Positions 4,696 through 62,497 of a stretch of 64,000 bases of DNA are shown here, one piece after another (positions within the stretch are counted from its first letter, which is position 1; every line of letters begins with the position of its first letter). This DNA comes from Takakia lepidozioides (Eukaryota; Plantae; Bryophyta). The position numbers and the translations under genes were made by a program. Under the pieces are notes generated by a model that saw only the letters and a list, made by a program, of their open reading frames with translations, was not told the origin of the DNA and made no database searches. Location of the stretch: the NCBI GenBank assembly GCA_030704615.1, contig CM060734.1, positions 25,668,001 to 25,732,000 on the forward strand. Reading direction: 5' to 3'.

Positions 4696-7707
<3,012 letters not shown>

Positions 7708-14816: not shown

Positions 14817-15542
14817 TGTCGCGGCCCTTTGCCTTGAGGGCAGGGGGTCGGGACACATGAGGGGCTGCCCCTGTAGTGGGGGCATCGGCAGCGATAGGTA
14901 TGGGGGCTGAAGCACCCTTGAGTGCCCAAGGCATTCAAGGAGGCGGAGGCGCTCACTAAGTGGAGCCCCGCACACCGGGTTGCGGTGGGGGTGGCTCCAC
15001 AAGGGGTGGTGGTAGCTTAGCGGGACTTAGTGGGGTGGCATAGGACTCACCATGGGGGCGGAGACCTCGTGGTGGGAGTCGTGGGGAGCCTTGGGGACTC
15101 ATCACGGTCCATAGGGCCGTGTGATGAGTGGGCCAAGACTCACCGCGACTCATCACCGGGAGTCGAGGGTTTTCGTGGTGGTTCGCCATAAAATGGCATG
15201 GCTGGTTATGAAACCCCCGCGGACAGCTACAGAAGTATATATAGGGAGTGTAGTACCCCGAGAACGGTGCAAGCCCGTTGGTGACCAAAACTAGTGAGTA
15301 AGCGAACGAGCCAGAAAAGCGACCAAAGAGTGGGGAGCTGTTCCGGACTGCCATCTACCAAAGGGAATTCTCCTAGTCCCAAATAGGTGGAGGGTTAGAG
15401 GGAAGCGAAGGGGGACCGTTATGTCCCGGTGAGCAGCCAAAGCTCCAAGTTGGCCCGGGCGGCCAGGTTGGGAGTCAGGCGCGCGCATCAAAGCGAGTAA
15501 CTATGACTTGAAGGGGAGCTTACCGAAGTGAGGTGCGCGACA
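14817..15542 (+). repeat. 5' LTR (726 bp)
   Basis: TG...CA ends with a 7-bp terminal inverted repeat; TATATATA box at ~15236; matches 21054-21778. Confidence 0.95.
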
Positions 15543-15544
15543 CT

Positions 15545-15556
15545 TGGTATCAGAGC
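15545..15556 (+). promoter_or_regulatory. Primer-binding site, tRNA-iMet type
   Basis: TGGTATCAGAGC, 2 nt after the LTR end. Confidence 0.95.
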
Positions 15557-15596
15557 TTAGAGTTCAGTACGCGATCGTCCTGGGATTGGCCTCATC

Positions 15597-18500
15597 ATGG
15601 GGTCGGGCAAGCCAAAGTGAAAGCGGAACGGCCCAAAAGATGATGATCCTGGTGAGCCCGATGGGGGCGACGTGTCACCGAGCGGCCGTTTGAGGAAGCG
15701 ATGAATGTTTCCGAAAACGAGGCCGCTCAAGAGCGGGAGGAATCCGAGAAGTCGGAGCCCGAGGAATCCTTGAGAGCTCTGACAAACCAAGAGATGCCTC
15801 CCATGCCGGCAGCCTTTTGGGAAGGGTGTTGGCGCAGTTTGGCGGGACGTTGAAAGACGTGTTGAAGGCGGCTAATGCCACTTCCACTAAGGCAAAGTTT
15901 AAGGTGAAGCCTAAGGAACCCGGCACCTTCGAGGGCGTTCGAAATCGGAAGGCACTCAACACCTAGCTCCTGGAGCTAGAGCAGTACTTCCGGGCGGCCA
16001 AGTTGAGTGACGAGGATCGGTGGAAGTGGCTCCCACCTATTTGAGGGGCTATGCTCAACAATGGTGGCAGAAACGCCTTCACGACCGAGGCCCAAGCCCG
16101 GAAACCTTGAACTGGAGTGGGTTCAAGGAATTGATGAAGAGATAGTTTGTGCCCCTCAACGCGTCCTGGCTTACCCGGGACAAGATTTGAAGCAAACAGA
16201 TGACATTCGGGGGTATGTCCAGGCTTTCAATGTGCTATTGCTCGAAGTCGCGGACATGGCAGAACCAGAAATGGTCTTCAACTTTGTGGCGGGACTGGCC
16301 CCATGGGCCAGGCGGAAGTTGGAGGAGAAGCCACCCAAGACTTTGAACGAGGCAATTGAGAGGGCTGAATGTTTCTCGATGTCCCTAGGGGTGAGAGACA
16401 AGGCCGTACGGAGCTGAACCACAAGAAGACCCGGCGGGAAGGTGACTCTTTCCGACCGGAAAAGAAGTGAGATAGGCCACGCGGCGATAATGGCACATGG
16501 AAATTGAAGGGAGGGCCTTCACACGTCAAGGCGGCACCCGGTGCTTCGAAAGGAAAAGCGGGTGGAGCGGCTTATGGCGGACAAAAGGCGACCTTTGATG
16601 GAGTGTGTTTCAATTGCGGGGAGCCGGGCACATGGCCAAGAAGTGCACGAAGCCTCGGCAATTGAACATGACTCGGGCGACCACGGAGCTGTCGGAAGAT
16701 ACCATCAGTCGCTTGGTGGAAGCGGTGGTCGCCAGGACTTGCAAGGTAGGCAACTATTCTTGTGAGTTGTATCAGGAAACTGGCGCCCTGCGTAAAGGGA
16801 GTCAGTTATTGTTCGTGGATGGGATAATATCCGGAACTAATGTGTCGTTGTTGGTGGACACAGGAGCGTCGCACTCCTTCATGACACTGGCGGCGGCACA
16901 AAGCTGGGACTCCCGACAAGTGACGTGGGGGCCTCTATGAGGTGCGTTCTGCCAAAGGAGAACCACAGTTGGCGACAAGGTTGGCGTTTGGCGTTTAATG
17001 TTCCTCTTCAACTGGGGAGTTGGGAGGGACGTGAGAACTTCACCATCTGCAAGATCGATGGAGTAGATCTCATTTTGGGGATGACCTTTCTGAGTAAATC
17101 CGGAGCGGTCATAGATGGCCGCAAGAGAGTAGTCACGCTGCCATGTGGGAATGGTGGCGAGGTCTTACGAGTGTCGGAAACGCCCAAATCCGTGGGAGGG
17201 CGAATAAACCTTCTGTCAGCAAGGAGTGGGCCGTGGAGGAGGCACACGAACCCCAGTTTTTGCTTTACATTAGAGAAGTGAAGGGAGAAGGCGATGGGGA
17301 GCCGAGCCCAGATTGGATCAAGGGGATTTTGGAGAAATACCAGGATGTGATGCCGGAGGATTTACCAAGCGGCTTGCCACCGCGAAGAGGAGTTGACCAC
17401 AAGATTGAGGTGATACCGGGATCGGAACCGCCTGCCAAGGCGCCCTACCGGTTGAGCCACATAGAGTTGGTCGAGCTGAAGACTCAGCTCAAGGATCTAA
17501 TGTCAAAGGGGTACATCCGGCCGAGTAAGTCACCTTACGGAGCCCCGGTGCTATTCGCAGACAAGAAGGATGGGACGCTGCGGATGTGTGTCGATTACAG
17601 GGCTTTGAATAAGGTGACTATCAAAAACCGGTACCCTTTGCCAAGGATCGACGACCTCTTCGATCGGTTGGCAGGAGCGAAGTATTTCAGCTGGATCGAC
17701 TTGCGCTCCGGCTATCATCAAATTCGGGTGGCGGAAGGAGATGAGGAGAAGACCGCGTGCAGGACAAGGTATGGTTCATATGAGTTCTTGGTGATGCCTT
17801 TTGGGCTCACCAATGCACCAGCGACCTTTAGCATGCTGATGAACAGCCTTTTTCAGGAGTGGTTGGATGACTTTGTGATCGTGTACATCGACGACATCTT
17901 GGTGTACTCGAAAACAAAGGAGGAGCACCTGGAGCACCTCAAAAGGGTGTTCCAAAAGTTGCGGGAAGGGAAGCTGTACGCCAAAGCTTCAAAGTGCGAA
18001 TTCGGGGTCACGAAAGTGGAGTTCTTGGGGCATTACACAGGATGGGATCAAAATGGATGACAGAAATGTGAGGGCAATCTTGGACTGGGAGCCTCCGACT
18101 TCGGTCCCGGGAGTGCGATCCTTCCTAGGACTCGCCTCCTATTACCGGAAGTATGTGAGAAATTTGCCAAGATCGCGGGGGCCGCTGTCGGACCTTCTGT
18201 GTAAATCCAAAGTCTGGGTATGGAACACATTTTGTGGCCAAGCTTTTGCTGAATTGAAGCAGCGGATGGCGGAAGCTCCAGTCTTGAAAATCCCGGAGTT
18301 CGATCGTCCATTTGAGATTCATACAGATGCGTCGGACTTCGCGATTGGGGGTGTACTTATGCAAGATGGACGTCCAGTGGCTTACGAAAGTAAGAAACTG
18401 AATGAAGTGGAGCGACGGTGGCCTACGCACGAAAAAGAGATGAAGGCAGTGGTGCATTGCCTTGAGCTTTGGCGCCACTATGTTGGTTCCAACCCAGTGA

Positions 18501-20148
18501 AGGTGTTCACGGACAATGTCACGGTGAAGTATTTTGCCACGCAGCCCAAGTTGTCCCCAAAACAACTTAGGTGGCAAGATACTTGGCGGTGTGTTCGACG
18601 TGGATATCCAGTACAAACCGGGACGAGACAACGTGGTGGCCGATGCTTTAAGTAGAAAGCAGCAGCTCTTGTTGGTGTACAAGGGCGAGACGGCGCTCCA
18701 AAGGAAGATCCGAAAGGCTTGCCGGAAGGATGAGCTGGCGAAGTCCGTGATGCAGGACTTGAGGATGGGGGTTAAATCGCAGTTCCACTTGCAAAATGTA
18801 CTGCTCCGGTATAAGCAAAAACGTCTCTACGTGCCAAAGGGAGGGATCAGAGATAGCCTCTTGAGAGAATGCCATGATAGCCCGCTTGCGGGCCACGGCG
18901 GAGCCAAGCGCACTGCGGCACTCTTGAAGAAAGAGTATTTCTGGCCCAAACTGAGGGAGGAGGCAGAGGAGTATGTCAAGACATGCACCACATGCCAACA
19001 AAACCGGAGCGAGTACAAAAAGCAAGCGGGGCTGTTACAACCCTTGCCGATTCCAGAGGGGACTTGGGAAAGCGTCTCGATGGATTTCATGACTGCTATG
19101 CCGCTGTCAAAAGGGTTCGATGCAATCATGGTGGTGGTGGATAGGTTCAGTAAAATGGGCCATTTCATCCCCACCAAGGAGACGGCAACGGCGCAGGAGA
19201 CAGGGCGACTTTACTTCGCCCACGTCTTAAAGCATCATGGAGTCCCTAAGGATATTGTCTCGGATCGCGATCCAAAGTTTACGAGTAAATTTTGGAGGAC
19301 ACTTTGGAAGAAGATGGGGACGAGGCTGAAGATGAGCACCGCCTTCCGACCTACGACCGACGGCCAAACAGAAAGGATGAATTCCGTAGTGAAGCAGATC
19401 TTGCAGAATTACGTGTCGGCAGACCAAACAGACTGGGTGGAACACTTAGAGACGCGGCAGAGTTCTGTTATAATAACACAGAACACTCCGCAACGGGAGT
19501 TTCCCCTTTCGTATTGGTCTATGGAAAAGCACCTCTGGTGCTGACAAGTTGGGCCGCCCAGGACGTTGAGGAACCGGCAGTAGCGGCGGTACTGGAAGAA
19601 CGCGAGCGTTTGTTGAAGCTCGCAAAGTACAACATTGCCAAAGCAGGAAACGGTATGAAAGGCAGGCGAATCGGAAGCGGAGGGAAGTGAAGTTTGAGGC
19701 AGGCACAGAGGTCTGGTTGAACATCAAGAATTTCCGACTACCTCCGGAAGTGAGTCCGAAGTTCGTACCTCCGTTGCGGGACCCTTTCGCATTCGGAAGG
19801 TTATGAATGAGGATGTGTATGAATTGGAGCTGCCGGCAAACAGCAAGGTGCACCCAGTATTCCATGTCTCCCTTTTGAAGCCTTACTTTCAAAGATGAAG
19901 CGCGTCCGAATCGGCATCAAGTGTTGCGTCCGCCACCTATGCTGTTGGATCATGAAAATGAACCTGAGTACGAGGTGGAGGCAATACTTAAGTCGAGGAG
20001 GTTCAAGAACGAGAAACGGAGTATCTCGTCAAATGGAAGGGCTATCATCATGTGGAGGCATCTTGGGTGCGTGCCTCAGAAATGGGAAACGCATCTGAGG
20101 CGGTTGCAGCTTTCGAAGGGCGACCTCAAAAGCGAGAAGAAACGTTGA
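15597..20148 (+). pseudogene. Frameshifted gag-pol of the chromovirus
   Basis: Zinc knuckle CFNCG..GHMAKKC; protease LVDTGASH; RT YIDDIL; RNase H TDASDFAIG; INT HDSPLAGH..C..CQ and VSDRD; chromodomain EYEVEAIL...YLVKWKGY. Confidence 0.93.
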
Positions 20149-21053
20149 TGGGGACATCAACCTTGGAGCGTGGGGGAGGAAATGCATGCTTAGCCCGGCT
20201 TAGCTAGCTTAGGAATCCGATTACAAAAACTTGTATTGTACAAAAATTTGTTATAAAGGAAATGGGTTCCAAATGTTGTGCGTCCTATTTTGTTTGGAAT
20301 GGTGATGCATGGTATGGTTGGCTAGTGTGTAGAATGCATGCTAGCTTATAAAAGTGGGAGAGGTAAATTGGGTTAATCGTGTGTTTGCGTAGTGCCGAAA
20401 TCGGGTGACCCCCATCCAAGGGGCAAGGAAACTTGCGACTTCTTTGGGAGTTCACGTGCTAGTGCGCACCTGGCGCGTGCGCGTACTATAACTGCGCTAC
20501 CGAGGGGGTTGCCTTGTAGTGCGGGCTAACGCGGAAGCTACGTGCTTCCGTTCACGTACTATAATCGTGTAGCCTCGGGACGAAGTCGTAGTGCGGCTTC
20601 GGCGTGTTCCCGTACCTCAGGCCAGCATTCCAAGGCGGACCCAATTGTAGTGATTGGGGCGCACGGTTGGTTCAAGGTTATCTTCCTAGTCAAAGAGGGT
20701 TCCAGGGAACCCTTGCTCAAGGTGATGCCAAAAGCGGCATCATGAGCGATCGCAAGCAATGTTGTTGCAGTAAGGCGATTCGATCCTCGGGGAGGATCGT
20801 TCCTTGGCCTTGAAGTAGGCCAAGAAGAGTGCACTGGGAGGAGCTGGAGAGGCTCCACCCTTGGCCGGGACTTGGAGGAAGTCGGCCGAACTAGCTAGTG
20901 GAGAGTAGAGTCAAGTGTGGGGTTTGGTTCTTTGCCATGGGACGCCATGGTGCGGAAACAAACTCCTTGATGTGGGACGCCACAACTTGGATGTTCGTTT
21001 CTACAAAATGGACAAGTCGATGAGGACATCGACTCCCTGTTGGTAGGGGTGTG

Positions 21054-21778
21054 TGTCGCGGCCCTTTGCCTTGAGGGCAGGGGGTCGGGACACATGAGGG
21101 GCTGCCCTTGTAGTGGGGGCATCGGCAGCGATAGGTATGGGGGCTGAAGCACCCTTGAGTGCCCAAGGCACTCAAGGAGGCGGAGGCGCTCACTAGGTGG
21201 AGCCCCGCACACCGGGTTGCGGTGGGGGTGGCTCCACAAGGGGTGGTGGTAGCTTAGCGGGACTTAGTGGGGGTGGCATAGGACTCACCATGGGGGCGGA
21301 GACCTCGTGGTGGGAGTCGTGGGGAGCCTTGGGACTCATCACAGTCCATAGGGGCCGTGATGAGTGGGCCAAGACTCACCGCGACTCATCACCGTGAGTC
21401 GAGGGTTTTCGTGGTGGTTCGCCATAAAATGGCATGGCTGGTTATGAAACCCCCGCGGACAGCTACAGAAGTATATATAGGGAGTAGTAACCCCGAGAAC
21501 GGTGCAAGCCCGTTGGTGACCAAAAACTAGTGAGTAAGCGAACGAGCCGGAAAGCGACCAAAGAGTGGGGAGCTGTTCCGGACTGCCATCTACCAAAGGG
21601 AATTCTCCTAGTCCCAAATAGGTGGAGGGTTTAGAGGGAAGCGAAGGGGGACCGTTATGTCCCGGTGAGCAGCCGAAGCTCCAAGTTGGCCCGGGGCGCC
21701 AGGTTGGGAGTCAGGCGCGCGCATCAAAGCGAGTAACTATGACTTGAAGGGGAGCTTACTGAAGTGAGGTGCGCGACA
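21054..21778 (+). repeat. 3' LTR (725 bp), preceded by PPT-like TGGTAGGGGTGTG
   Basis: Matches the 5' LTR and is followed by the TSD TTCTA. Confidence 0.95.
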
Positions 21779-22636
21779 TTCTAGCTGTTGATTCTCCCCT
21801 TCTCTCTGTAATGGGGAATCAGCCGTCGAGTTGATGATGTCATCTGCTGCTGCACTTGTGGTTGCTTCGTTGATCCGGGCTCTCTTTGCAAGTCCGCCCT
21901 CTTCTTCTTCCTGAAATGTTGCCGTCTCACTTCCTTCTTCCTCCATTGTGTGTACCCGTTGCATGATTCCCAACGTCGCTTGCTCTTCGGCCGTTAGGTG
22001 TACGGTGTGTCGAATCATCTGGAGTAACAATGGAGTTGCCATGGTAACAGTCGCTTCCTTCTTCTTCTTTGTCAACCTGGTCAGTTCTTGAGTTAACTTC
22101 TTCAATAAGAAGCTTGCCCAATTCACGATTTGCCCATTGAAGCAAATCAACACTTGGTCGATTAGCTCTTTGGTACAGTAGCTATGGTTTTGCCTGATGA
22201 GGCAAAGCAATGTGCTAAGTACTGGGGCTATCTTCCTGAAGCCATGGTTTTTGTTGTGGTTGCATGTGTAGCCTTGATTTGCTTGGTTGAGATTCTCAAA
22301 CAAATCTGCAAGTACAAACCTTGGAGGTTTGCCGGTGTGCGGTGGTACGTCCAGACTGGGAAGGTGAAATACTTCCGCCAAGTACTTCTCTGTCAGCAGG
22401 ATGTGCGTGTCGTGGACATTTGTGCTCCAAGTGCTGGTGTTGTAATTCTCCAAGAACTCCCTGCATAGCTCGTCGTGCTTCATGTTCCAATCCAGCGTGG
22501 TGATGAAGTATCGCAGGCCAAGATTGTCCAACGTCTCCTGTGTCTCTGTGTCCTGCTCAATCTTCCGCAACGCTGGGCTGATTTTGAAATTGACTTGCGC
22601 ATAAGAACTTGGTGCCTTCCGCTTGGTGCCTGCCAT
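21779..22636 (-). pseudogene. 5' part of the post-pol accessory ORF of the non-chromovirus element; continues from 14816 to ~12700
   Basis: Starts MAGTKRKA...ELCREFLENY...VNWASFLLKKL. Removing the insertion joins ENQQLE to GGTKPQTNEST. The downstream part is coiled-coil-like and frameshifted. Confidence 0.75.
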
Positions 22637-23350
22637 TTCTCTTAGTCTCGTGGTTGCTGTAAGGAATTGGAGCACCAATTCCTGTATCACAAGAAGTATG
22701 AAGCACACTGGAAGTTGTGTATACAGCAATTTCCAGTTTGCGGAAGAGAAGGTGAGGAGTTCGCTCCTGGGTTTAAGTAGGGGTTCCTCTCTGTAGGTTT
22801 CTCCTCTAACTTCTCTCGAGGTTCTTGTGGAGGTAATTCTGTCCTACTGGTTGCCTAGGTTTAAAGCGTAGTTAGCTTTAATTGCTGGGCCCAGGCTTAC
22901 CAATAAGCATTTAGCCTCAGGTAACGGTTTTGTGAAAACTTCATCCCTTTTGTGCTTGATTTTCTTCCGTTGGTTTTTTCTTCGTGATTTGTTTTGTTTA
23001 AAACTGATGGTCGTTGATGATTGTCCAGTTTCGGTCAGTTTATGTTCATCCCTCTGAGCTGTATTCATCCACTTTGGTATGTGGTCCGTTTTTAGATGGG
23101 CGGCGTTGGCGCAGTACTTGCAGCTTGGTTTAATGGCTTTGCCCTTATCGTCCGCCGTCTTTTGGCAATCCGTTGGATTGCGCCGTCGTTCCGCCTCTGT
23201 GTTATGATCGAAGGATAGTGGTGTATGATTACCACTGTCGGTGGGGTGATCTGGAGCATACATCTCGGAATTTAACACAAGCAGTGACTCGTTGGCCGTT
23301 TCGTATTCGTTCACTGTTCTGTAGGGCATCTGTGCTGGCCACGGTTCACC

Positions 23351-26300
23351 CTACGGTATACGGGGTGGTAATGTTGTCCTCCAGATAAATGGTGGTCTAG
23401 CCGTCGTGGTGCCCTGAATTCGTGTTGCCACCTGTCTTAGTACATGCTGATTCACCGCGTCGTGATGAATGTAGTAGGCATTGGTGGTTTCGCGCTCCTC
23501 CTCTTTAGTTTGATCTTTCTCGTTGGCGTATAAGTCATGTATAAGGGCTTTGTCATGTATTCCTTGGTAGCCTTTTAACTTGTTAATATTAATTCGTCCC
23601 ACGAATTCTTGTTCCAAGGTTTGCAAATCAACAGTTCCATTGTCATGTACCCTTTTGATTTGAAATGGTCCCATCCATGGCATTTTCAATTTTCCGCCCA
23701 ATTTGATCTTCTTGATTTTTGGTAACCATAATACAATATCCCCGTCATGGAAAGATTTCTCTTTCCCTTCGGATATTCTTTTCCTTCGTTGTTCCTGGAT
23801 CCGTGCCATATTATCTGCGGCATCTGCTCGAACTTCTTTCAGATGGAATAATTCATATTCCCTGACTCGTAATGATTCTTCTAAGCAGTGCCTCTGCTCC
23901 ATACACCAGTTGAAATGGTATATGCTTCGTGGTCACCTTGTATGATGTCTTGAATGCCCATAGTGTTGTGTTCAATTTGGTGTCCCAATCTGTACGATTG
24001 GCATTTACTATCTTGATTAAGATAGTGCATGATATTTTGTTGGTAGATTCGGCCTGACCGCTTCCTTGAGGATAGTAAGCAGTACTCTTGTGATGTACAA
24101 TCATGAACTCCTCCGTCAAGCATTTTATAGCATCATTTATGAAGTGTGATCCCTGATCACTGACGACTGCTGCCGCTCTGTGAGCATATTTGTCCATGTA
24201 TCTTCTGTAATAGCTCGTCTGTCCCAGAAATCTCTCGAGTTTCTTGGGATTTTCTGGTGGTGGTATTTTCTGGATAACCTCCACTTTCTTTGGATCTACT
24301 AGAATTCCCTGTTGGCATACAATGTGTCCCAATAATAATCCCGAATTCACATAGAATGTACATTTTTCTGGGTTGAGACTTACTCCATTGTTTCTGCAGG
24401 CTTGTAGGCAAAGTTTTAACTGTGCCAAATGTTTGGATTTCTGTCCAAAGACACTGAAATCATCCAAAAATACCTGCATAAAATCATTGAGATAGTTCTT
24501 GAATATCTCACATACTGCTCGTTGAAATGTGGCTGGTGCATTGCAAAGTCCAAATGGCATGACTTTATTAGCATATGCTCCCCATTCAGTTATGAATGCG
24601 GTCTTTTCTCGGTCTTCTTCTGCCATGTGTACCTGGTTGTACCCACTAAACCCATCCATGAATGAGTACATCTCATGTCCAGCCACTGTGTCCAACACTA
24701 TTTCAGTGAAAGGTAGTGGAAAAGGGTCTTTCTTGGTTCCTGTGTTTAACTTGCGGTAGTCCACACACACTCGTAGTTTTCCATTTTTCTTGGGTACTAT
24801 CACAATGGGTGATAACCATTGTGGTGTCTCTACTGGGTATATGAATCCTGCATCCAGTAACTTCTTGATTTCTTCCCAAACTTTAGCTGTATAGTTGGGG
24901 TTCATTCTGTAACGGTTCTGACAAATTGGTTTTGTGTCAACTTCCAATTCAATTCGGTGCTGACAGATGTTAGAAGGTATACCCTTCAAATCCTTGTAGT
25001 TCCAGGCAAATACATCCTTGTATTCAGTGAATAATGCGGTGGCTTTTTGTAGAAATGATTCTTCAAGACCTGCACTCACTCGTATTATCTGTGGTTCTTC
25101 CACTGTTCCCAGATTCACTTGAATCAATTGAGTTTCTTCCGTTATTGTCCATCCTGCAATCTCTTGTCCGATGGTTGCAATTGTGGCAGGTACTTCACTG
25201 ATTTGAATGTCTTCTTCCCTTTCTTGATAGAACCGGGCCGGGTGTTGAGGTGTGTCCATCGCTTCTTCCTCTGGATCTTCATTTCTCGAAGTATTTGGTT
25301 CTCATTGGGTGTTCACCATGTGACATCCTACTGTTGTGGTATGCTTGACCACCAGTTGTCCTAGTGGGCAACCAAATCATGTGATGATGTTTTCATATAA
25401 GAATTTGGCTGTTGATCTGGCAGTGTTGTCTCTTAGTGCCTTGGCCTCTACCCATTTGGTAGTGTAGTCAGTGGCTGTGAGGATGTATTGGTTTTGTGTG
25501 TACCTTGCTGGAGGTTTAATGGGTCCCACGAAGTCTAGCCCCCAGCGCTGAAATGGTTCTGTTGGTAGTATTGGGTGCAGAGTCCCCTTCCCCGTTCATT
25601 CTACTAGTCCCATCCTCTGGCAGACATCACACTGTTGACAGTGTTTATAAGTATCTCCAAATATAGTAGGCCACCAGTAGCCTGCTAGTAATATTTTCTT
25701 TGCTGTCAGGTCCGAACTGAAGTGTCTACCTGCAATTCCTTCGTGTAGTTCTTGCATTACTGTTTTGGCTTGGTCTTTGTTTACACATCTAATCATTATG
25801 GAGTCAATTCCTCTTTTGTACATAATCCCTTTGATTAATGTGTATGGCTTGCTTTTCATTGAAAGCTTCCTCCTGTCATCTTTGGTGTAACCTTCAGGAA
25901 TTTTCCCTGTGTTCAGATAATATTTGATTGGCCATTGCCAATCATCTTGATCTTGATCCTGAATATCTTCTAATTCTTCTTTGGTGACTGTATAAGCTCC
26001 AATACTGATATTGGCCAATTCTTGATTGTTTGTTTCTTCGTTTTCCTTGTCATCTTCTTCTTCTGGATCTGGCTCTTCTTCAATAATAAGTCCTTCATCA
26101 AGAGGTTCATCTTCATCGGATGAATCTTCTTCTTCATCTGTGTCGTCCATGAGTTTGAGAGCATCTGGAAGGTCATAGTCTCCTTGAAACATTCCCAGAG
26201 CATTTATAGGATCTGTCTCTTCATCTGGTGCTTCTGGTTGAACAACAAACAGAAATGCATCGGGAAGTTGATCCTCTACCCCCGTGGCTGGTTCTCCTGT

Positions 26301-27403
26301 AGTAATCCTTGACAGATGATCTGCTGTAACATGTAATCTCCCTGGTTTATGAACAACTTCAAAGTCATACTCATGAAGAAGTAATAACCATCGAGATGTG
26401 GATGTGCTGCGTATACTGTGGCTTCTTCTTCATCCGACAGTCCACTGGACCAATCATATTCTTCCACTATGCAAGGTCGTTTCTCTCGTGGAATGGTACC
26501 TCGTTGCTTCGTCGTGATGGTGACTTGTTCTGTTTTTTTTTTTTAAATTGTGAGAGTCTGACTTCCCCAATCGTGGTGTGATTGGGCTTGTGTTAACCAT
26601 GGTCGGCCAAGTAGTAGTGAATATCCCTCTGCCACATCCTCCATTCTGAGAATGGTTACTGATATTTCGTATACCAGTCCTGCTACTTCCATTGCAAGTC
26701 ATCTGATAATCCCCAATGGCTGTACTTTTCGTTGATCAGCCATTCGTATCGTGAATGGAGCAGGTTCCATGTGCCCCAATCCTAATGACTTCTTCATCTT
26801 TTCTGTCATGATATTCACTCCGGATCCTCCATCGATGAGTACATTCGTTACCATCTTCCGTCCAATACGTACTTGTATTACAGGTATTGCTTCGTCGTAA
26901 TCTGGAGTTTGTCGTATAGTTGTGGGTTTAATCGTGTAAACCTCTGGTGTTGGTTTTTGTTTTGGTGTGGGGGTCAATGCCTCGATTGCCCGAAATAAAG
27001 TTTTCTTGCAGTGTGGAGCAATTTTTAATAATTGTCCAATGGTAATTTGGGTCTTGGTCTGGCAGATTACTTCAGCCAATTCTGTTTCCGTGGTTGTATT
27101 CATGGTCTTCATCGTTGGTCTGATTTGCTTATCTAGAGTTGGCTCTCTAGAAGGTATATGAGTTCCCTCTTGCATTTGAGCTATGGCTTTACTTACTTCC
27201 TGGTGTAAGCTCTTTTCCTCCTGCCATGCTGCACTTTCTGGATATTGTTTCCGTTCTTCTTCAATCTCCTTATCTGGAGGTTTCTGTTTCTTGGCCTGAG
27301 TTCGGGTTACCGCAAGAGTATCCACTACAGGGGTTACCACACTTACGGCTACACTTGGTCCGGCTTCCATATTTCCCACTTCTGCCACATGCTTGATTCG
27401 CAA
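23351..27403 (-). pseudogene. Scrambled pol: PR, RNase H tail, INT(N), RT, INT(C)
   Basis: Order on the minus strand: IDGGSG; RWLLLLHEYDFEVVHKPG; HEGIAGRHF..CDVCQ; [13 protein letters not shown]; RT (CVDYRKLN, FLDDF); SDQGSHF..YYPQGSGQAE; WMGPF. Confidence 0.9.
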
Positions 27404-27418
27404 CTGGCATTCATGTTT

Positions 27419-28789
27419 CTAGTGTCCCTCTTTCTTGCAATAGTGGCATCTCGTGCTTTCTTTGTTTTTGGGTTGATGGTCCCTATCCCTTGGTGGATAT
27501 TCATTTCGTGGCCTCTGATAATGATTACCCATGTTGTATCGTCTTGGTTCATCCGATCCTCCCCGTCGGATTTGGACTTGGTGTACCCCCACCTCTCGTG
27601 TGTACCCAATCTTCTTGGCCCGTTGGTTGTAAATACAATGGCTGGTATTATGATTGTTCATATGACAAATATCATAGTATTTGTCCTTCATATGGCATTC
27701 CGTTGCCAGGTGTCCTGAAGTCCCGCATTTGTGACACCATGTTGCCTTTCGTGGCCCTTCATCTTTAAAATTCTTGATAGCCTCTGCTATCTTTAGATCC
27801 AAAGTGGTTTTGTCAATCACTTCTTTCTTCTTTTGCTTGGGGTTTTCTTCATCATCAGAGTCTTCTTCTTCCAAGAGATCCTTGGAATCTTTGCTTCTGT
27901 TCTGATGGAATCCCAATTCCAACTTCTTTGCAGTCCCTACTGCTTCAGCCAAAGTGTTGTTAGGCATGACTGTAACCATGGTTACGTATTCACGACGAAG
28001 TCCATTGATGAACCATGATTTTTGCAAATCATCCCCTGGTGCTTGAGGTAGTTTCCTAATCAGAGTCTTCATTCTCTCCAGGTAGTCGACTACCAATTCT
28101 TTCTTTTTCTGTCTTAGGTTCTGTAATGCTGTGAAGATTTCAGACGTGGATTTGTTGGATCTATATCTTTCTTGAAATGCGGCTCTCATATCCGCCCAAT
28201 TCGCAAAGTGATTGGCTGGGAAAGTTGCCAACCATTCAATGCCTTTTCGGGCCATTGAACAAGGAAATAGTCGGATCTTCTCTTGGTCTGTTGCTTCATT
28301 GTAAATGATGCACATGTTTTCAAATTGATTCAGATGGATATCTGGATCAGATTTCCCATCATATAAAGGAAATGGTGGTCTGGTTTTGCTTGCTGCTAAA
28401 GCCATCGGTGCAGCTGGTGCAACTGGTTGTCCAAACTGGGATGGTCCCGCTACTGCTGGCTGTGGTGGTGTTGGTGTTTGTCTTCCAAATAGTGATTCAA
28501 AGCTAGGAGGTCCTTGTCCCAATGATAGTCGTCTTCCAGCTGCTGTCCCTACTAAGCTTAATGAATCTTTAAAAGCTTTGAGTGCAGTTCTGGTTATCCT
28601 TTCTGGAGAAGTGCTTTCACTTCTTTCACCTTCTTCACTAAAAATGTTATCAAATCTTTCTTCTAATATTTCAGCAAAACCTCTATTTGGGCTTGTTACT
28701 GTAGAAGGTCCTTCAGATCTTTCTTGTGGTAACCATTCACCAAGTACATTACTGACAACTTCTTCTGGTGTAGTGTTCCCAATTCCCAC
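27419..28789 (-). CDS. Retrotransposon Gag with zinc knuckles
   Basis: 456-aa ORF: YDGKSDPDIHL, LRQKKKELVVDY, WFINGL, CHKCGTSGHLATEC, CHYCKKEGH. Confidence 0.9.
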   Translation of the reverse strand: MGIGNTTPEEVVSNVLGEWLPQERSEGPSTVTSPNRGFAEILEERFDNIFSEEGERSESTSPERITRTALKAFKDSLSLVGTAAGRRLSLGQGPPSFESLFGRQTPTPPQPAVAGPSQFGQPVAPAAPMALAASKTRPPFPLYDGKSDPDIHLNQFENMCIIYNEATDQEKIRLFPCSMARKGIEWLATFPANHFANWADMRAAFQERYRSNKSTSEIFTALQNLRQKKKELVVDYLERMKTLIRKLPQAPGDDLQKSWFINGLRREYVTMVTVMPNNTLAEAVGTAKKLELGFHQNRSKDSKDLLEEEDSDDEENPKQKKKEVIDKTTLDLKIAEAIKNFKDEGPRKATWCHKCGTSGHLATECHMKDKYYDICHMNNHNTSHCIYNQRAKKIGYTREVGVHQVQIRRGGSDEPRRYNMGNHYQRPRNEYPPRDRDHQPKNKESTRCHYCKKEGH

Positions 28790-28829
28790 CGATCCGATTT
28801 CCTGATCTTTTGGTTTATCACTGTTTGAT

Positions 28830-31800
28830 GTATCACCTTGATCGGCAACTGGTGATATCCGGACCGCAAGTCCAAAGTGCTAAAGACCTTGGCATGCCCA
28901 ATGGCATCAAAGATCTCCTCCGGTGTAGGCATGGCATACTTATCGGACTTGGTCTGACAATTTACAGGCCGATAATCACCGCACATACGTCTCTCCGTCC
29001 AATTGGCATAGACATCCTTCTTGGCTGGCATCACCGTGGCTGAAGCATACTCTCCACCAGAGAGCTCCACCAAACCAGCCTCCCAGAGATCTTGAGTCCT
29101 CATCTGATTTGGCGTGTCCGTGGCCAACTCAATACGAATTTCCTGACCCTTCAGTGCTCCCAAATCCTTCAAATTGAAGGCAAAGCAATTCCTGTAAGCC
29201 CTCAGGAACCGCCGTATACATCGTCTCTCTCCTCCGGTGACAATGGGTCCAATGTCAGACTCCCAATTGTCCTCCGTAACTGCAACCTTAAGTCCAGCAG
29301 ACTTAGAGGTAGGAGATGCGTCCCGTGGTTGCTATGCCGCAACCTGTTGAGCAGTACTCCCTGCCTGCTCAATCAATGACAAGGCCTCATCCTACCCAAT
29401 CATCTCATCTTTGAGGACCTCCTCAACCCGAGAAGAATCCCCAACCTCATCCATCACAGCCGCCTTGGCTGCCAACTCTCTCTGAACCTCGAGCACCTCC
29501 CATGTGTGCCATGGATGTCTACACCCTGTGGTCCTCACCGGCTCGCCCCTACTCACTGCCTGTACCGTCTCGGTAGGCAGAGAGACCGTCAAGGGAAGTG
29601 CACTCCGCACTCTACGTTGTTCAGCCATAGCCAAGCTGATAATCCAGGTTAAGCAATTGAGATCCATCGCTTGCCCCAACACCTGACGACGTGATGCCTC
29701 AAAAAGAGAAGGCACCGCTGTGGTCCTAGTGGAAAAACCCATAGCCCGCTCTCGCTCATCGACATTAGGCTCCACTAACTGCTGCAACTGAGCATCCCAT
29801 AGGAGGCCAGGTCCACTATCCCGGAAAGCATGCGATCCTGTGGTATAGGTAGTGCTCGTGGTCGACCCACATTGTTGACCACTGCCAAAGGCGACCGGTC
29901 ATCGTGTCTCACACGCTGAGACTGCCTCCCTGTGTCCAAAATGCTATCCACTGTGAGGTATGCTGGCCGCTGCGCCCCATCAAATGCACGCTTGAGCAGT
30001 GCGGGTGGTATCAAGTTAGTCCACCATAGCCATGGACGATGAGCCCGTGACCCCACTGTAGCTGCATCCAGCAACACTGCTGACCCAAGCCACGACCGGA
30101 CTTGGTGCACACTGGCCATCATCCTGGCCCGAGAATCGCCCATCAGTGACACATTCTCCAAGATGTATGCTGGAGATACAGCTTGATGAAGCTGTAAATG
30201 GCACAAAACCCGCACCATCTCCCAAAACAGACCCGACCTCGAGTCTCGCAATCCATTGCCATGCCCGGCTGATGAATGCCCTTGGCAGGGCCAACCTGCC
30301 ACTACAAGATCAATGGAGCCAATCCGCTCCAAATCTTGCACCCCCAGCAACGAAATGTCTGCTGGCAAGGCCTGCTGATATCCACGAACTGCAGACACCG
30401 GCAACAACTCAGGGTACTGTTGCACCAACTGAGCAACATGGCGTAGGGAGACGCGTCGTGCAGTCTCATCCCTTTCCACATACAAGTAACGCCGTACCCA
30501 TACACCTACCTGTAGCACAGTAGCCAATCCGGTGCTGATCCCGCCAAACAAGTCCAGAAGGCAAATGCCTTCATCCGGACATTGCCACACGATCGGTGTG
30601 GTGTCCAATGGTGACAATTGAGATGGTCCTGGTGCAATCCCCGCACTGTCCTCCTCTCCTAATGGTACAAAAGCCTCTACCCAGGCCTGTTGCACCCGTT
30701 GATCAGCAACCCGCTGCAAATCCTTGCTCGAGCCCCACAATGGAGTGTGAGCAACCATGACAGGCAACTCTGCCATACCATACATGTCATCCTGCTCTCC
30801 CGGAGGTGACACATCCTCTGAATGAGTGTTGCCATCCAACAACTCTCCAGGCCAAGTCACTGCAGCTGTGAATGCTGCCAGTGTTGGCATCTTGCCTAGC
30901 TGGGCAACCGCAACTCCTCCTATGAACATCACGGGGAGCTGCACACGCCGACCCTCCCCTGACTGCCATCTAGGCCTATAGGAAGTTGACTCCTCCCAAA
31001 ATCCCAGGGAGAAGTCCATGGGGTACAACACTGCCCCACCAACAATGACATCGTACGAGACCGTGTCTGTCATAATGGCCTTGGCTCTCATCACTGAGCC
31101 ATCTGTAGGATGATCCGGCTGTAGTCTGATCGCCAACTCACGCCATGTCATGCCTCGAGCCTGCTCTGATCCTCCCAGAGATGTATGTATCTGGAAAGGG
31201 CACGGCTCCATATCCGCCCCCATGAGGCCCAAGCCTGCAATAGCAGCTCTGCCCAACATCAATGGCTGAGCTCCCGAGTCCAACAAGACCCGCAGTGGCC
31301 GGTATCTCTTGTCTGCCGGTCCACTCAAATAGAAAATGCCATCCTGGTTGTCTAACATGACAACTCCAGGTGTCACCATGGCGCGCTCAATGGCTGGCCT
31401 AGCTGGCAGTTCCATCAACCTGGCAACTGCAGCTTGCCATGGCGCCACCGTGGCAGTCTTGACCCTCATATTCGAGGATCCCTCCGGCACTACACCTCCC
31501 ACTATCTCCACAGAAGATGAAGTAACCTCCCCACTCTCACAGAGTGTAGCTGCCAGCCTGAACACCTCAGCTGGTCTTACCCCCGGCGTCGCAATCATGG
31601 TAGCCGAGAACAATGGAGCCCGACACACCAATGTGGCCACCCCCAGCAGCACACTAGCTGCCGTAGCCTTGGCAACACTAGGTAGTGGTGCTGCCCGTGT
31701 AGCTCTCCCCAATGGCATAGTAACATCCGCCTCGGTAACAGTCGGGCGAGAACTAGGTGCCATGGACGGCGTCGACACTGTCTCCGCCAATGTGAATGAC

Positions 31801-33500
31801 TGAGGAAGCCTGGCCTGACGGCTTGCCTCCCCATGCTGTGGATCCAACTCCACCTTCGCACCCCGTGGCTCAGGAACTCATGTTGCTCCTCGAGTCACTG
31901 CCGCAGTTGACTCCACTTGCACTAGTGATAATCCTGCCCCACCCACAGTGGTAGTGGTAGTGGCACCCCTCACTAGTGGTAGTGCTGCCTCGCACATGAA
32001 TCCCATGCCTCCCATGTCTCCTCCCTCAGGAGCAGGAGGTGGACCATCCGGCCTTGGAGCCGGTACCACCTGAGCTGTGGCCATGGCAGTGAGCCTCTGC
32101 TAGCTGCTGAAGCCGGTTGGCCATGCCTTGGTCACCACCCTGACCTCCACGTCCTTAGCCATGTTGAGCTTGCCCTCGGCCTGCACCTCATGCCTGGCCA
32201 CCTCGTCCTCTCTGGGCTACTCCACCTCGCCCCCGGCCACCATTGTTCCCTTGGAACTGGCCTGGGCGCAACTCAAGATGCAAACCATAGCACTGGGCCT
32301 CTCCATGCCCGTACTTGCTACAATGCCCACACTGCAACTGTGCAGGCTGTGCCGGTGCCAAACCATTGCCTCCCTCTGGGCAATCCTTCTTGACATGGGG
32401 TCCCCCACATGTCCAGCACACCACATCCGCCCGTTGTTGGCTTGCAAATGAAGGGAGAGACCCCTGCATCTGAGGTCCTCTCTGTCCTTCCCTGGGCTTC
32501 ACCTGAGCCCCCTTGTTGCCATAAGCACATTGAGGTAGTGGCTGGCCACTACCCCGTGGCGCCTCCTTAGCAAATCCCACCATGACCACTCGTTCCTCCA
32601 CCATGTTGAGCTCTATCCGCTCTGCCAGCAAAAACACATTTGCTAAGGTGGGTTGGGCCGCTTGTAGGAGAGTTGCATCCCGCACCCTTCTCCTCAACTC
32701 CTTGTCCAATATCCCGTACCAGAACTGGACTGCCTGAGCCTCCGTAACCCCTTGGGTTAGTATGCTTCTGTTGGAACTCTTGCAAGCAACTTCTCTGTCC
32801 TCACCCCTTGGTAGTTCTTTCTCAACTCTTCCAAGAACTCCACAATAGGGTTGAAGGCAGACACCGCCACTGGTGCTGGTGCAGCAGTAGCTTGGGTGGA
32901 CGTTGTAGTTGCTATACCACTAGTCCCACTACTACTCGTGGCAGCTGCTGTTGCAGCTACAGCTGCCGGTGTGGCTGCTACCCTTGTGCCTCTAGTGCCT
33001 CTAGTGATGGAGACATAGTCGGGTGACCAGTACATCCTCCACTCCTCGATCTCAACATCATGCCCCCGCCTAAACTCATGGTAATCATCCATGGGCGGCC
33101 CCTCAAGGTGCTGAAACAACCCCTTCCATGCCATAAAAGACGTAAACAGTTGTGGATTGCGCATTTGCTGCAAGTCACACCAACTATGAAACTCTTGGAT
33201 AAAATCATCCAACTCAATGGTGCCCACCGCCCCAGAGTACCTACGTGGCCCCTTGGTAGCTCCATACATCTCCTCCGTTGTGTCCCACAACAATGACAAT
33301 GAAACAACTTGCACCGCCGGTGTGAGTTCTCCTGATTCACAATCCGAATCAGAACATTCCGTAGAAGACACAAGAGGTGAAGGTGGCCTAAACTGCACAC
33401 CTCGTCTCGTATACCCGCTAGTATCGCTAGTGCTCGTACCGGCACTTTCCCCAGCAACTAGTGGCACCTCCGTGTTGACAAACTGACACTCAACCGGTCA
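28830..33500 (-). mobile_element. Ty3/gypsy-like element encoding Gag, protease, C5 DNA methyltransferase and RT (truncated within RT)
   Basis: gag 32188-33467 (CWTCGGPHVKKDC, CGHCSKYGHGEAQC); protease LLDSGAQPL ~31275; DNMT ~29640-30570; RT start MPAKKD...RMCGDYR...[12 protein letters not shown] 28830-29172. Confidence 0.92.
29640..30570 (-). pseudogene. DNMT3-like cytosine-5 methyltransferase domain within Pol
   Basis: Motifs in order: I LLDLFGGIS, II YVERD, III ADI, IV AGWPCQGHS, VI LENV, VIII DAATVGSRAHRPWLWWTNL, IX ERERAMGF, X RRQVLGQAMD. One frameshift lies before motif IX. Confidence 0.93.
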
Positions 33501-36000
33501 TGAACCTGTCTCTAACCCCCTCTCCACAAGGTATCCGGGTAGAGAACCTGATGCGGCTTATGGTTTGGAATACTAGGTTCCTAACGTAGCCTGCACCTGC
33601 ACCTTCATCCACCGCAGGCACTCCCATGGTTGGTTGGTCATCACCTCCAACCTCACCACAGGAGAAACAAAGATGGTCTAACTGGTCATCAACCCAGCCT
33701 CACCATCGACAGCATGCTCTAGGGTTGGATCGGCGATCAAGCCCGAGTCAACCACCTATAAAATCAAGCGCCTACACAAAACTAGCATGACGCACAATCA
33801 AGCATGCAGGTGTGGAGGGGATCCAAACACAATAATGAAAACAACAACTCCCCCACACCAAAAATAACTCCACAGTGTCGCTCCTGCAATCCAGCCCAAA
33901 CCCGGACTGACTCTTGCCTTCACCTACGAAAAGGTCTCGGTCTACAGAGAAGGTGGAAAGCTACGAGGAAGGGAAGCTAAAGCAATGCCTATCCCCAGCA
34001 CGCTCTCATCCCAACACCTTTTTTTTTCCTCTCTTCTCTCACTTGCATGACCATGAGAGCATCATGTAGACACTCCTCAAACCACCCTCCACGAGCTCAT
34101 GAAACTTGGCCTCCAAGGCCCCATGCAAGCCTCCACAGGGTCCGCCAATGACTCCTTATGTCCACCAGCCATTCCTCAGAATGGAACCACCTCAGGAAAC
34201 CACACCATTCACTGAAGGTTCAAAAATGGAGCAAATAGAGGTACATATAGGCCCCAACAACATTATGTCCAAATGAATTACCTGCAGGCTGGTCTCCCCC
34301 ATAGTTAAGAATTGGGCTGAAAACCCGAAAAGATTACCTGCAGGGAAGTAATCCCCTTTGTTAAAATGCAACAGGGAGGCAATTCTGACTTTTCTGCCGG
34401 ATCAGCTAGCTCAGAACCGTTGTTCTACAGAGCCCAGCCTCCCCATCAAAGTCCCACGAAACGAGTGAAAAAAGATTTTTATTTTATTTTATTTTTTCAC
34501 TCTGCCTGTTCGCGGCCTTCCGTGGCTCCAACCGCCGTGACTCCTCACGGCCCGCCCTAGGCGCTCGTTGGCCACGGGCTGCCCCATGATACCCCATGGT
34601 ACCACTCCCACGAGCCTTCACGGCCCGCCATCCCCACGATCTGGTCACCGTGCCCACCCATTGTGTCTGCACCACGGCTTCCAACGGTCACGGTCAACAG
34701 TCACGGCCTGGGGGTATCTCGTGATATTGCCCCCATGGCCCATCACGGCCACTGTTCCCTGCATTCCCTGGAACTCCCAACGAGTTCCCATGCGTTCCCG
34801 AGCTCTCCCCGCGCTGGGGTTTGCTCCTGCACCCTCTGCCACCAAGCTATGGCTTCTGCAAAGCCTCCAGACCTGCTGCCATGCTCTCTTGGGCTCTCAC
34901 GACCCACTAGAGGCACCCTAAACTCAACAAGCAAGCAATATGCTGCCCAACAAGCTCCATTTCTTCATGAAGCTCACAAAAACGAATCTGAAAATACACA
35001 CATTTACAAACTTGGTGCACCTGCACTTCTCATGCATATCCCCTAGCTCTAGGGCACCTCATTGCTACCCTTCTAGCCCCCGCTCTTGCCACTCTAAGAG
35101 CCCTTACACTGCTGAGTTTCAGATTGAAACTCCAACTCAGCACATGTTTCACAAGTGCACTGATTTGCACACAAGAGGGACCTGCCCCCTCTCTTCACTC
35201 ATACCTCTTCATGAGCTTGGAGCTGAAGCTCCCAACAGACTGCGATGCATTCCCTCGCAGCTCCACTATTCGGCTGCTCCTCATCTACCCGCAACAACTG
35301 ATTTCGGGCAGAAATACCTGGAGCTGATCATATCATCTCCAACCTGCAACATGCTAGCTTCCCATGCGCAGCCCACATTTATGCAGCTCCTCAACTCGGC
35401 CTGCAACTGAAGAAGACGACCACCACTTCGCCCACTCGTGGCCAGCATCTCCTCTGTTTCATACTAGAAGCCCAAACTTGGTTGTCATAGCGTTGAGCTA
35501 TGCAACGCCGCTCTTCAACATAGGCTACCCGCCTCTCTATCCATGGCAAACCTGCAACCTGTTCGCCTTTGCACTCTATCCGCTTTGGATAGGCTCATGC
35601 ACGGATCCCTGCACTCTAGGCTGAACTGTTTCTCATGATCTGAAAACACAAGTGCTACAACTAACTCGAACCTGGCACTCACAAACTCGAGCTGATCTTT
35701 CTCAAGTGATAAGGAAAGGAAGATACAAGCACACAAGCTCTCTCAAACTCACATACTTGCACATGAAAACATCACTCATATATTAAGTCGAGCCAAGTGC
35801 ACCCCACGCCATGGGGAATCCACACTATGGCGCCATAGCTAGACACGGTGAGGCTCAACTCGAGAAAGATGAGCCCACCGCGATCTGCCGTGAAGATAAC
35901 AACGTCAGGTGCCCAAACATGTATTGGCCCCTGGATTGACACTAGGGTCAATCCCAAATGTCAATATATAAAAGCTAGCTATTTCCTAGCTAACTTCACA
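33500..36000 (-). other. Probable 5' leader/LTR of the DNMT-carrying element
   Basis: Non-coding 2.5 kb directly upstream of gag, beginning TGTGAAG on the minus strand at 36000. There is no second LTR or clear PBS to confirm it. Confidence 0.35.
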
Positions 36001-36089
36001 CTAGTGGTAAAATAACTTGACAGCGTGATTGGACGATAATTGGAGATGAGGTTTCTGTCCCTTTTTTTGAAGATTAAGGTGATAAGTCC

Positions 36090-36360
36090 GCTCTAGGTCT
36101 GAGAGAGGGGAGGACAGAGCCACCTTATCTTGATCCGAGAGAAGAAAAGGGATATGACTGAGAACAGCCTCCGAAGCCATTCCAGCCTCAGCGGAGGGAG
36201 CCCTCTTGGAGAAAAGAGAGGCAAAATGCTGCTCAGCAATAGATGCCATAATCTTAGGGGAGTAAGCAGGAGACCTATCTGGGCCAATCAAAGACGCAAT
36301 TGAAGAGGCCATTTTTCTTTGCCTTGCTTTGATAAAAAAAAAATTTGGACATTTTCTCAC
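36090..36360 (-). mobile_element. Small LINE ORF2 fragment (endonuclease-RT linker)
   Basis: FFIKARQRK...IASL...HFASLFS...LSDQDKVALSSPLSDLE. Confidence 0.55.
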
Positions 36361-37212
36361 CTTTAAGGGACCAGTTAACACCAGCCTTGAGACGAAGAGC
36401 ATTCTCTTTGTCCTGCCTGAATTTCCACAGATTGGTCTTGGGCTGTGTTGTAATCCATAAGATTCTCGGAACGAAGAGACAAAAAAAGACTGATTATCAG
36501 GGATGAAAACAAAGGTAAGTGCGATGTCTGAAAAATCCCAATCCCTGATAGTGAGGAGGAGACAATTTCTGGACAAGGGTTTTAACCTTCTTTCATAGGG
36601 GATGTGCAACAGAACAATATCCAGAAGGTGCCTATGAACTAGCACTAGACAACTGGGTAGCAAGAGAGCATAGAAAAAGCAAGTGAGAAGGGGGAAGGCG
36701 GAGTGAGCTATGCTCACCTGAGTTGAATCTCCTGGCAGGGCAGATGGCGAGGTCGCGTCCATGGGACTGAGCATGGTTTTTTTCGTTTTCGCAATGAAAG
36801 GCACGAAGCCTACAACATCCTCCTTGCGGGGGGTGGGTGATGGGGCCCTTGCAAATCCGAGGATAGCATGAGCCACGATGAACCCTCCCTTTAAAACTTT
36901 AACTTCTTTATTAATTTGATTAAAAGGCCTCCGTCCCCTTTCCATTTAAAAATACAAAAATCAGGGCAATACCTGTTCTTTAAAATTAAAAAGAAAAAAA
37001 ATGCACTACCTTATTCGAGTCGCTTGGACCCGTCCCACTCAATGATGCGACGGGTGAGGTGTTGGCGTGTGAGAGCGGTTTTTTTCTTTCCCCTGCTCAC
37101 ACGATACCAACCCCCGTCATACTTTTTTTTTGGCGGAGTGGTGAAACAAGGGGAGCATTTTGAATTCTGGGGAGTGCAAGCAGATCCATCTTCTCTTGGC
37201 TCTGTTGCACCC

Positions 37213-50500: not shown

Positions 50501-51255
50501 CTCTGCCCTAACCATGGAAGAAGTGAGCCTTCTTCCCTCCCCTGCTGGACGGACCACCAAGATACGACATTGCACAACACAACACAGACAGCAGCTAAAA
50601 ACAGCAAGAGCAAAGGAAAGCCGGAAAAACAAGATGGTTAGAACTGAAAAATCAAGAAACAGAGCACACCGAGAAAGCAAATGGGAAGGGGTGAGGGAGC
50701 GCCGCTGCGAGCACTGGAAGGCTCACAGCAAACGCAATCAATTCACACGCTGCCCAGCGCCTGGGATGGAGAGCCGCGGGGGGATCGAGGGCAATAGCAG
50801 CTGGTGAGGACCTGGAATGAATTGACGAGGCTTCGCAGGGGGGATGAAGAAAGGAAGCACTCGGATGTGCTTGAAGGTGCCTGTCAAGTAGACCATCAAA
50901 GAGCAGGGAGGCACAGCAGGGCCGATCAAAGCCCTACTAGATGAAAGACAGATAGGAAACCGGAAACTCAATGCAGAGAGGATCCATGAAGGTGTTAGCC
51001 TTAAGGCAGCTGATAATAAAGGCGACTGGGGGGGTTAGTAAACAAAGGGATTCAGAGTTAAGAGAGCTTTAAGGCCACCGAAAGGGGCGAGGTTACACCG
51101 ATGAAGGGGACCAAGACGCCAGAGAAGCCTGAAGCTTGATGTAGCGGGGATCCCAGAGCAGAGAGGTGGAGGTAGGCGAAGCTACCCGGAAATCGCTAAG
51201 TCCCAAGGGTACAGACACCGGGAACGCGGAGCTCGCCACGGAGCTCCCATTCCCC
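44560..51255 (-). mobile_element. Near-full-length degenerate L1-like LINE (ORF1 plus ORF2)
   Basis: ORF1 with CHGCNGTGHFKVNCP knuckle (~49650); APE endonuclease SWNIPG, LIQEHK, INVYA, GDFN (47100-48027); RT PGLDGVPAEFYK, NYRPITLLN, DFEKAFD, RQG.PLSP, YADDT; GGLGILDL. Many frameshifts; ends are approximate. Confidence 0.9.
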
Positions 51256-51279
51256 TGTCAACTTCAACAAGTCTGTCTT

Positions 51280-62477: not shown

Positions 62478-62497
62478 AGATATGAAAGACATGGGAC

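Follow-up and report, generated by a model that had tools for sequence, protein, structure and literature searches.

What is a DNA methyltransferase doing inside a retrotransposon, and does it belong to a family of elements or to one accidental copy? The question is raised by a 64,000-nt window of the genome of Takakia lepidozioides (CM060734.1, 25,668,001-25,732,000; all coordinates below are positions in this window). On its minus strand, from 36022 down to 28838, lies an element encoding Gag, an aspartic protease, a DNMT3-like cytosine-5 methyltransferase (hereafter DNMT) and a truncated reverse transcriptase (RT). The copy in the window is a fossil; the finding is the family to which it belongs, which is almost certainly a high-copy Ty3/gypsy-type family with a DNMT of its own and not a one-off. 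We propose that Gag, protease and DNMT share one frame, that RT, RNase H and integrase would be reached by readthrough of a conserved stop, and that the enzyme, packed at Gag-like levels, would likely methylate the element's cDNA; taken whole, this account seems to us moderately probable.

Two protein searches returned 23 and 28 matches, led by Marchantia polymorpha and Calypogeia fissa with up to 70-75% identity and including more distant ones in Sphagnum, Closterium and Haematococcus, while a profile search gave 453 clusters at an E-value (E) of 1e-30 or better. The names of 30 proteins were looked up, which brought in Klebsormidium nitens, Mesostigma viride and Scenedesmus; the named matches include no vascular plant, most matches being nameless. 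The order Gag-protease-DNMT-RT also occurs in Marchantia, Sphagnum and Closterium, and a protease followed by a DNMT in Calypogeia, Klebsormidium (directly upstream in K. nitens GAQ93235.1) and Mesostigma. In metagenomes, where 80 of 104 loci were kept, the order is Gag-knuckles-protease-DNMT-RT-RNase H-integrase-PHD wherever the parts are present and undeleted, and the DNMT precedes RT in every one of the 46 loci that have the two within 1.6 kb. The relatives carry an rve integrase (PF00665), not a tyrosine recombinase, and make target site duplications. Among viral contigs one distant locus matched. The domain is thus a family trait, and the possibility, left open in a preliminary description of this locus, that other members lack it is refuted. 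Summed contig depth, which is not a copy number, was taken from four runs of one sample, possibly the assembly's own source; in run X1 it was 0.5-1.08 million and even over Gag, protease, DNMT and RT, against 18,000-34,000 in the neighbouring element and 90-510 in the flank. The family likely has thousands of copies, most of them with the DNMT.

The same set of metagenome loci holds a second subfamily (L058, L062, L064, L065, L071-L076, L080, L081), with 35-45% identity to the first and with the same domain order and split repeats, in which the stop motif described below is absent. In addition, many Marchantia and Calypogeia gene models (P0001-P0004, P0025-P0045), some of them labelled cytosine methyltransferases in UniRef, are retrotransposon pieces. 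Many annotated bryophyte 'DNA methyltransferase genes' are parts of the DNMT retrotransposon, and such models could inflate bryophyte DNMT gene counts.

The open frame at 29775-31877 (minus strand; 700 amino acids between stops, or 692 when counted from the first GTG) contains LLDSGAQPL of the protease and then LFGG, VERD, GWPCQ, ILENV and HRPWLWWTN. As first described, methyltransferase motifs I-VIII (29847..30572), with PCQ at 30282-30290 and ENV at 30150-30158, follow the protease in this 692-residue frame, motifs IX-X (29635..29832; ERERAMG, LGQAM) come one frameshift on, in frame 29392-29898, then a gypsy RT, and a two-knuckle Gag lies upstream. All seven methyltransferase motifs checked are intact in the window copy. 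The profile check that the description had proposed was borne out in part: the DNMT matched DNA_methylase (PF00145; E 8e-12; 45.7 bits, the cut-off being 22), the RT reached only E 0.0037 for PF00078, below the cut-off, because it is cut short, and the Pfam scan gave no match for protease or Gag, whose identification comes from their motifs and from homology to relatives that Pfam does label. The nearest solved structure is DNMT3A (E 3e-8), followed by DNMT3B, a DRM (5e-5) and HhaI (1.6e-3). The stop-free DNMT domain of a relative, L004, gave a predicted fold with a pLDDT of 95.2, whose listed top matches are all DNMT3 structures, the best being DNMT3A (E 4.3e-19, TM 0.71); the DNMT3-like assignment of the preliminary description agrees with this. 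In the ESM Atlas all matches were below 0.9 (0.76, PF00145), which is a lead only. Judged by these comparisons, the enzyme is DNMT3-like, unrearranged and intronless, and its predicted catalytic residues are kept.

Crude Nei-Gojobori counts between the window and 75 loci gave proportions of nonsynonymous differences (pN) of 0.23 for DNMT, 0.15 for RT, 0.30 for Gag and 0.33 for protease; the synonymous proportion (pS) in the DNMT was 0.73, which is saturated. By these values the DNMT is better preserved than Gag and protease and is under strong constraint between lineages, and the enzyme is quite probably active in living copies. Two observations weigh against our account. Among close, decayed copies the ratio of nonsynonymous to synonymous rates (dN/dS) is 0.57 for DNMT, exceeding the 0.39 of RT (protease 0.65, Gag 0.47), and observed over expected CpG, at 0.48 in the element, is on a par with the adjoining gypsy element (0.47), with LINEs lower at 0.37-0.43. 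As the element has lost CpG no more strongly than its neighbours, it bears no signature of self-methylation; neither CpG nor CHG depletion is specific to the DNMT element among its window neighbours.

In the mechanism that we propose, ribosomes would mostly terminate after the DNMT, a few per cent reading through; the protease would release the DNMT within the particle, where it would be packed in Gag-like numbers and could methylate the cDNA ahead of its integration; each new copy would thus arrive pre-marked. Methylation of cDNA by a retroelement DNMT was proposed by de Mendoza et al. in 2018 (PMC5890265, accessible text); we regard cDNA as just as apt to be the main substrate as not. The DNMT might instead be kept for another role, be it methylation or binding of the element's RNA, a trans effect on host chromatin or a structural function within the particle; we think this rather unlikely. 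Such a role would suit the lack of element-specific CpG loss and amounts that, being Gag-like, exceed the need of one cDNA, and it gains, at the expense of our own reading, from the Klebsormidium enzyme, which was without activity on yeast DNA, a result that its authors call inconclusive in the accessible text (PMC5890265); it fits less well with catalytic motifs that are all kept, with a DNMT3 fold kept by prediction and with related DIRS-borne DNMT3 domains that methylate CG de novo. What retrotransposon-borne DNMTs do has been a question since 2018, in part for want of hosts that are easily manipulated. It becomes testable because the genetic model Marchantia polymorpha has relatives of the element in which the predicted Gag-protease-DNMT protein is unbroken.

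The preliminary description had the methyltransferase cleaved from Pol. This finds no support in the land-plant clade, where a conserved stop parts Gag-protease-DNMT from RT-RNase H-integrase. In the window it reads TAG CAA CCA (29326..29334, minus strand), a readthrough-type context, and is the one at 29334 of two in-frame stops between motif X and RT, the other lying at 29394. The 46 loci with both domains comprise 34 of the main clade and 12 of the second subfamily; 32 of the 34 have a stop followed by CAA-C[CT] (21 TAG, 11 TAA), typically 106 codons upstream of the RT core, and among 25 same-frame DNMT-RT linkers none was stop-free. Predicted proteins of Marchantia and Calypogeia and several unnamed ones terminate at the matching place, 78-114 amino acids past motif X. 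The window and L004 have the exact UAG-CAR-YYA, which is the tobamovirus readthrough consensus (PMC3159437, accessible part), with A at -1. These two share 18 identical bases around the stop despite overall synonymous saturation between window and loci, and of the 5077 stop triplets in the window only 16 have CARYYA behind them. No ATG and no splice-site pair is common to the three lineages that are independent at the DNA level. Given the preserved CAA-CC context, the rarity of CARYYA and the absence of a shared ATG or splice pair, readthrough is the best reading, and synthesis of RT, RNase H and integrase in this way appears probable. Tobamovirus-type readthrough is used by the SIRE1 retroelement; here it would stand between the methyltransferase and the RT of a gypsy element. 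A search of the accessible literature found no published CARYYA readthrough retrotransposon.

Several points weigh against readthrough. The stop motif occurs in 0 of the 12 second-subfamily loci, and the algal proteins continue without a stop; TAA makes up 11 of the 32 main-clade stops; in the peat-moss type the context is CAA-CCC (5/6 of the consensus), with an ATG three codons after the stop; and many loci are near-copies, which leaves only the three independent lineages (window, L004 and the peat-moss type). There is no strong structure behind the window stop (-34.4 against -32.1 +/- 3.5 for shuffled sequence), and only one of five loci tested exceeded two standard deviations. By eye, a possible 6-bp hairpin, GGTTGC/GCAACC (29320-29345, minus strand), holds the stop in its loop in both the window and L004.

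It is improbable, in our judgement, that RT, RNase H and integrase come from a spliced or separately initiated message, by Ogre-like splicing or reinitiation. The automatic Marchantia models P0003, P0004 and P0028 do skip the stop, and the peat-moss ATG at codon 3 and the 11 TAA stops count on the same side; however, the frame is maintained across the stop and its CAA-CC context conserved, no methionine occurs before codon 77 in the window or codon 48 in L004, and there is neither a splice pair common to the three lineages nor an acceptor-like site in the window. In Ogre, according to the accessible text of PMC6317226, GAG-PROT likewise lies in the first open reading frame (ORF) and RT-RH-INT in the second, but the two are separated by a spliced spacer of ~274 bp, whereas the present family has a single in-frame stop together with split repeats, a DNMT and a PHD. 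By readthrough and splicing alike, the DNMT would be on the abundant Gag-side product and not on scarce Pol. The conserved stop predicts a Gag-level enzyme dose, which changes the plausible roles of the enzyme.

Where does the DNMT come from? Two layouts exist, with the DNMT before RT in all named streptophytes and between RNase H and integrase in Haematococcus and Scenedesmus. In an RT tree of 66 rows, with two window elements as outgroups, the DNMT-before-RT group (support 81) is sister to the RNase H-DNMT-integrase group (99), the two being joined at 99. Two DNMT trees, one computed after removal of roughly half the second-layout rows and of ten Marchantia rows that were redundant or broken, the other from 44 of 98 rows, recover the RNase H-DNMT-integrase layout as one clade (97/94); the latter tree unites the window DNMT with liverworts and Sphagnum (100/100). 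The occurrence of the same DNMT downstream of RNase H in Haematococcus and Scenedesmus hints at a single, very old capture, which would have been followed by relocation. Against this stand deep DNMT-tree nodes that are unsupported, trees that lack a host DNMT3 outgroup and a Marchantia that groups with Sphagnum, not with Calypogeia (98/90). The sister gypsy clade (P0015, P0023, P0049, P0143 and ~65 more), with its DNMT3-like domain between RNase H and integrase and a C-terminal PHD, was not found described in the literature consulted.

We favour vertical descent of the lineage from charophyte ancestors, which the sequences make fairly likely, over transfer. In place of the preliminary description's choice between a persisting and a horizontally acquired lineage, a persisting one related to charophyte elements stands, and horizontal acquisition is not needed. 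There is only a low probability that the land-plant clade came from an alga by horizontal transfer or spread sideways among bryophytes: land-plant DNMTs are 64-76% identical to each other and 34-42% to Closterium, Marchantia and Sphagnum exclude Calypogeia, and the named matches include no vascular plant, yet Mesostigma, Klebsormidium and Closterium have the same layout, synonymous sites between window and loci are saturated, and the coexistence of two subfamilies in the loci means that paralogy can explain the tree. Combined into a single history, a DNMT3 captured by an old gypsy clade before the chlorophyte/streptophyte split, placed at two polyprotein positions and carried to land, with a leaky stop of plant-virus type that loads every particle with methyltransferase, pre-methylated cDNA, circle-junction integration and thousands of copies feeding the bryophyte methylome, would be speculative and, with all its parts, unlikely.

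Among published elements the nearest is KnitGypsy-Dnmt3 from Klebsormidium nitens, which de Mendoza et al. (2018) describe in the accessible text of PMC5890265. Both have an intronless, unrearranged DNMT3-like domain in the gypsy polyprotein region, under purifying selection, and DIRS-like split repeats, which match its figure legend; both have the gypsy set, protease and RT being found in the window and RNase H-integrase-PHD in relatives. There, the DNMT shares one ORF with RT, whereas here the two are in the same frame with a stop between them, the host is a land plant and the copies likely number thousands. The accessible text calls the acquisition one 'in the K. nitens lineage' and names neither Marchantia nor mosses, and a 2025 survey (PMC12344493), in its accessible part, only restates the point. 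By contrast, the matches found here range from Mesostigma to bryophytes, and this spread and the chlorophyte sister clade argue against a Klebsormidium-limited capture. A literature search, most subscription papers lying outside its reach, found no land-plant description of such an element, and Neumann 2019 gives Chlamyvir as algae-specific and leaves a methyltransferase or PHD unmentioned. SymbioDIRS-Dnmt3 and SymbioLINE-Dnmt of Symbiodinium also carry a C5 methyltransferase on a retroelement, and the SymbioDIRS-Dnmt3 enzyme methylates CG de novo in yeast, but their backbones are DIRS or LINE and not gypsy with a DDE integrase, and the accessible text gives them an independent origin (PMC5890265). 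The plant host DNMT3 (Physcomitrella; PMC6453930, accessible part) has the same unrearranged DNMT3-type catalytic domain in non-seed plants, in ordinary chromosomal genes instead of an intronless copy inside a retroelement.

The continuity of protease, DNMT and RT is supported by even depth, and no run contig spans the whole stretch; that a host DNMT gene and a retrotransposon were brought together by a one-off insertion or by an assembly error, as that gap and a truncated copy fused to another element might suggest, is exceedingly improbable given the same order in dozens of loci and several named genomes, the lack of introns and the even depth.

The element had been called LTR-type (long terminal repeat), and this did not hold up, as its repeats are split and not paired LTRs. 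The full-length relatives L011, L034 and L071 have the layout A1-body-purine tract-B1-A2-B2, with ends TG...CA and a G-rich tract preceding B1; the repeat ends A and B differ and are not the two like LTRs of a canonical Ty3/gypsy element. Target duplications of 4 bp are exact in five of the six loci with both ends, the sixth having one mismatch. The eight loci that show the B1-A2 junction all read CA-NN-TG there, the 2-nt spacer differing in sequence. In the window, A1 (35785..36022, minus strand, lower boundary approximate) begins with TGTCA at 36022 and was placed by depth and loose ends; in run X1 its summed depth peaks at 1.07 million, compared with 90-510 for the flank. The flanks are diverse at the loose ends at 36022 (agreement 0.39-0.41), and the loose ends at 36024 share a single sequence ending in CACGACA (0.93-1.0), which is the internal B-to-A junction of other copies; the window family has split repeats too. 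No LTR pair for the DNMT element exists within the window, where the 3' end of the copy is lost. Two primer-binding-site starts were sought in the window, and one match lies inside repeat A. Because B and A together resemble an ordinary LTR behind a purine tract, the integrated form corresponds to a permuted two-LTR circle. The integrase would use the internal CA-NN-TG junction of circularised cDNA, yielding the A-body-B-A-B layout; we offer this route tentatively, at slightly less than even likelihood. Extra letters occur in two of six family-1 A-to-B junctions, one set of which resembles the 5' leader; L026 is rearranged. Annotation requiring paired LTRs, as in the accessible text of PMC6317226, would miss this very abundant split-repeat family.

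The window copy itself is dead, 3'-truncated and decayed, in line with the preliminary description, which had missed that the element reaches 36022, that a stop at 31880-31878 is copy-specific and that two in-frame stops precede RT. Downstream of A1 on the minus strand, a long 5' leader (33270..35784) differs among copies, with depth falling to 31,000-58,000 over 34182-35517, and has no Pfam match. Gag (32260-33269) consists of an N-terminal part (32787..33269; likely start ATG 33269; 61% identity to residues 4-157 of Marchantia P0002) and a C-terminal part frameshifted against it (32260..32823; 48% identity to P0002 162-354), with the zinc knuckles CX2CX3HX4C and CX2CX4HX4C within 32260-32421. 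The protease (30960..31376; Asp codon of LLDSGAQPL at 31280-31278) is 51-55% identical to liverwort relatives and matches P0010, which carries PF13650, at E 4e-10. The RT N-terminal part (28838..29331) starts in frame 28696-29331 and is 76% identical to a Marchantia RT piece. The lesions are a frameshift inside Gag, a second behind the knuckles, the stop at 31880, which is the only reason why the 692-residue frame opens there, a copy-specific deletion with frameshift at ~29840, upstream of motifs IX-X, the stop at 29394 and an internal deletion of ~15 codons in RT. At ~28838 the RT ends and a different gypsy element is joined without a terminal repeat in between, the depth falling from 731,000 to 18,000 (run X1). 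A programmed frameshift at ~29840 was considered and rejected, since homologs are in frame and other copies have extra letters at 29840-29853, seen as loose ends in 24 and 34 contigs of run X1.

The land-plant host, already suspected from the sequence, is supported, as a non-seed one, by an ATG8 gene (6390-7708, plus strand, PF02991) with several exons and short introns and by the relatives of the adjoining gypsy element. By identity these are Riccia (55-61%), Marchantia (49-56%), Adiantum (41-55%), pine (45-51%) and angiosperms (44-47%), with angiosperm entries at the top by bit score. Taken with the placement of the DNMT among liverworts and Sphagnum, the sequence points to a likely bryophyte host, perhaps a liverwort. 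The adjoining, second gypsy element (~13200-28837, minus strand; Gag 27419-28879, RT 23853-25301), fused directly to the RT of the DNMT element, is interrupted by another element and has long extra ORFs behind its integrase (21737-23932, perhaps 13223-14813). A chromovirus-like gypsy element is present in two copies ~92% alike (14817-21778, plus strand, with LTR-like repeats 97-100% identical; 54100-56600, minus strand), and CpG in both is 0.84-0.86 of expected, far above all neighbours. A hAT transposase end (PF05699) and decayed LINE pieces lie at 10190-10789, 45000-54000 and 36001-36945 (all minus strand), the 5' end of the DNMT element being at the edge of a LINE-like frame. Finally, the region 56884-63436 has an F-box-like frame with a weak Pfam match and several ORFs of 180-316 amino acids, and a 10-bp tandem array occupies 61016-61251.

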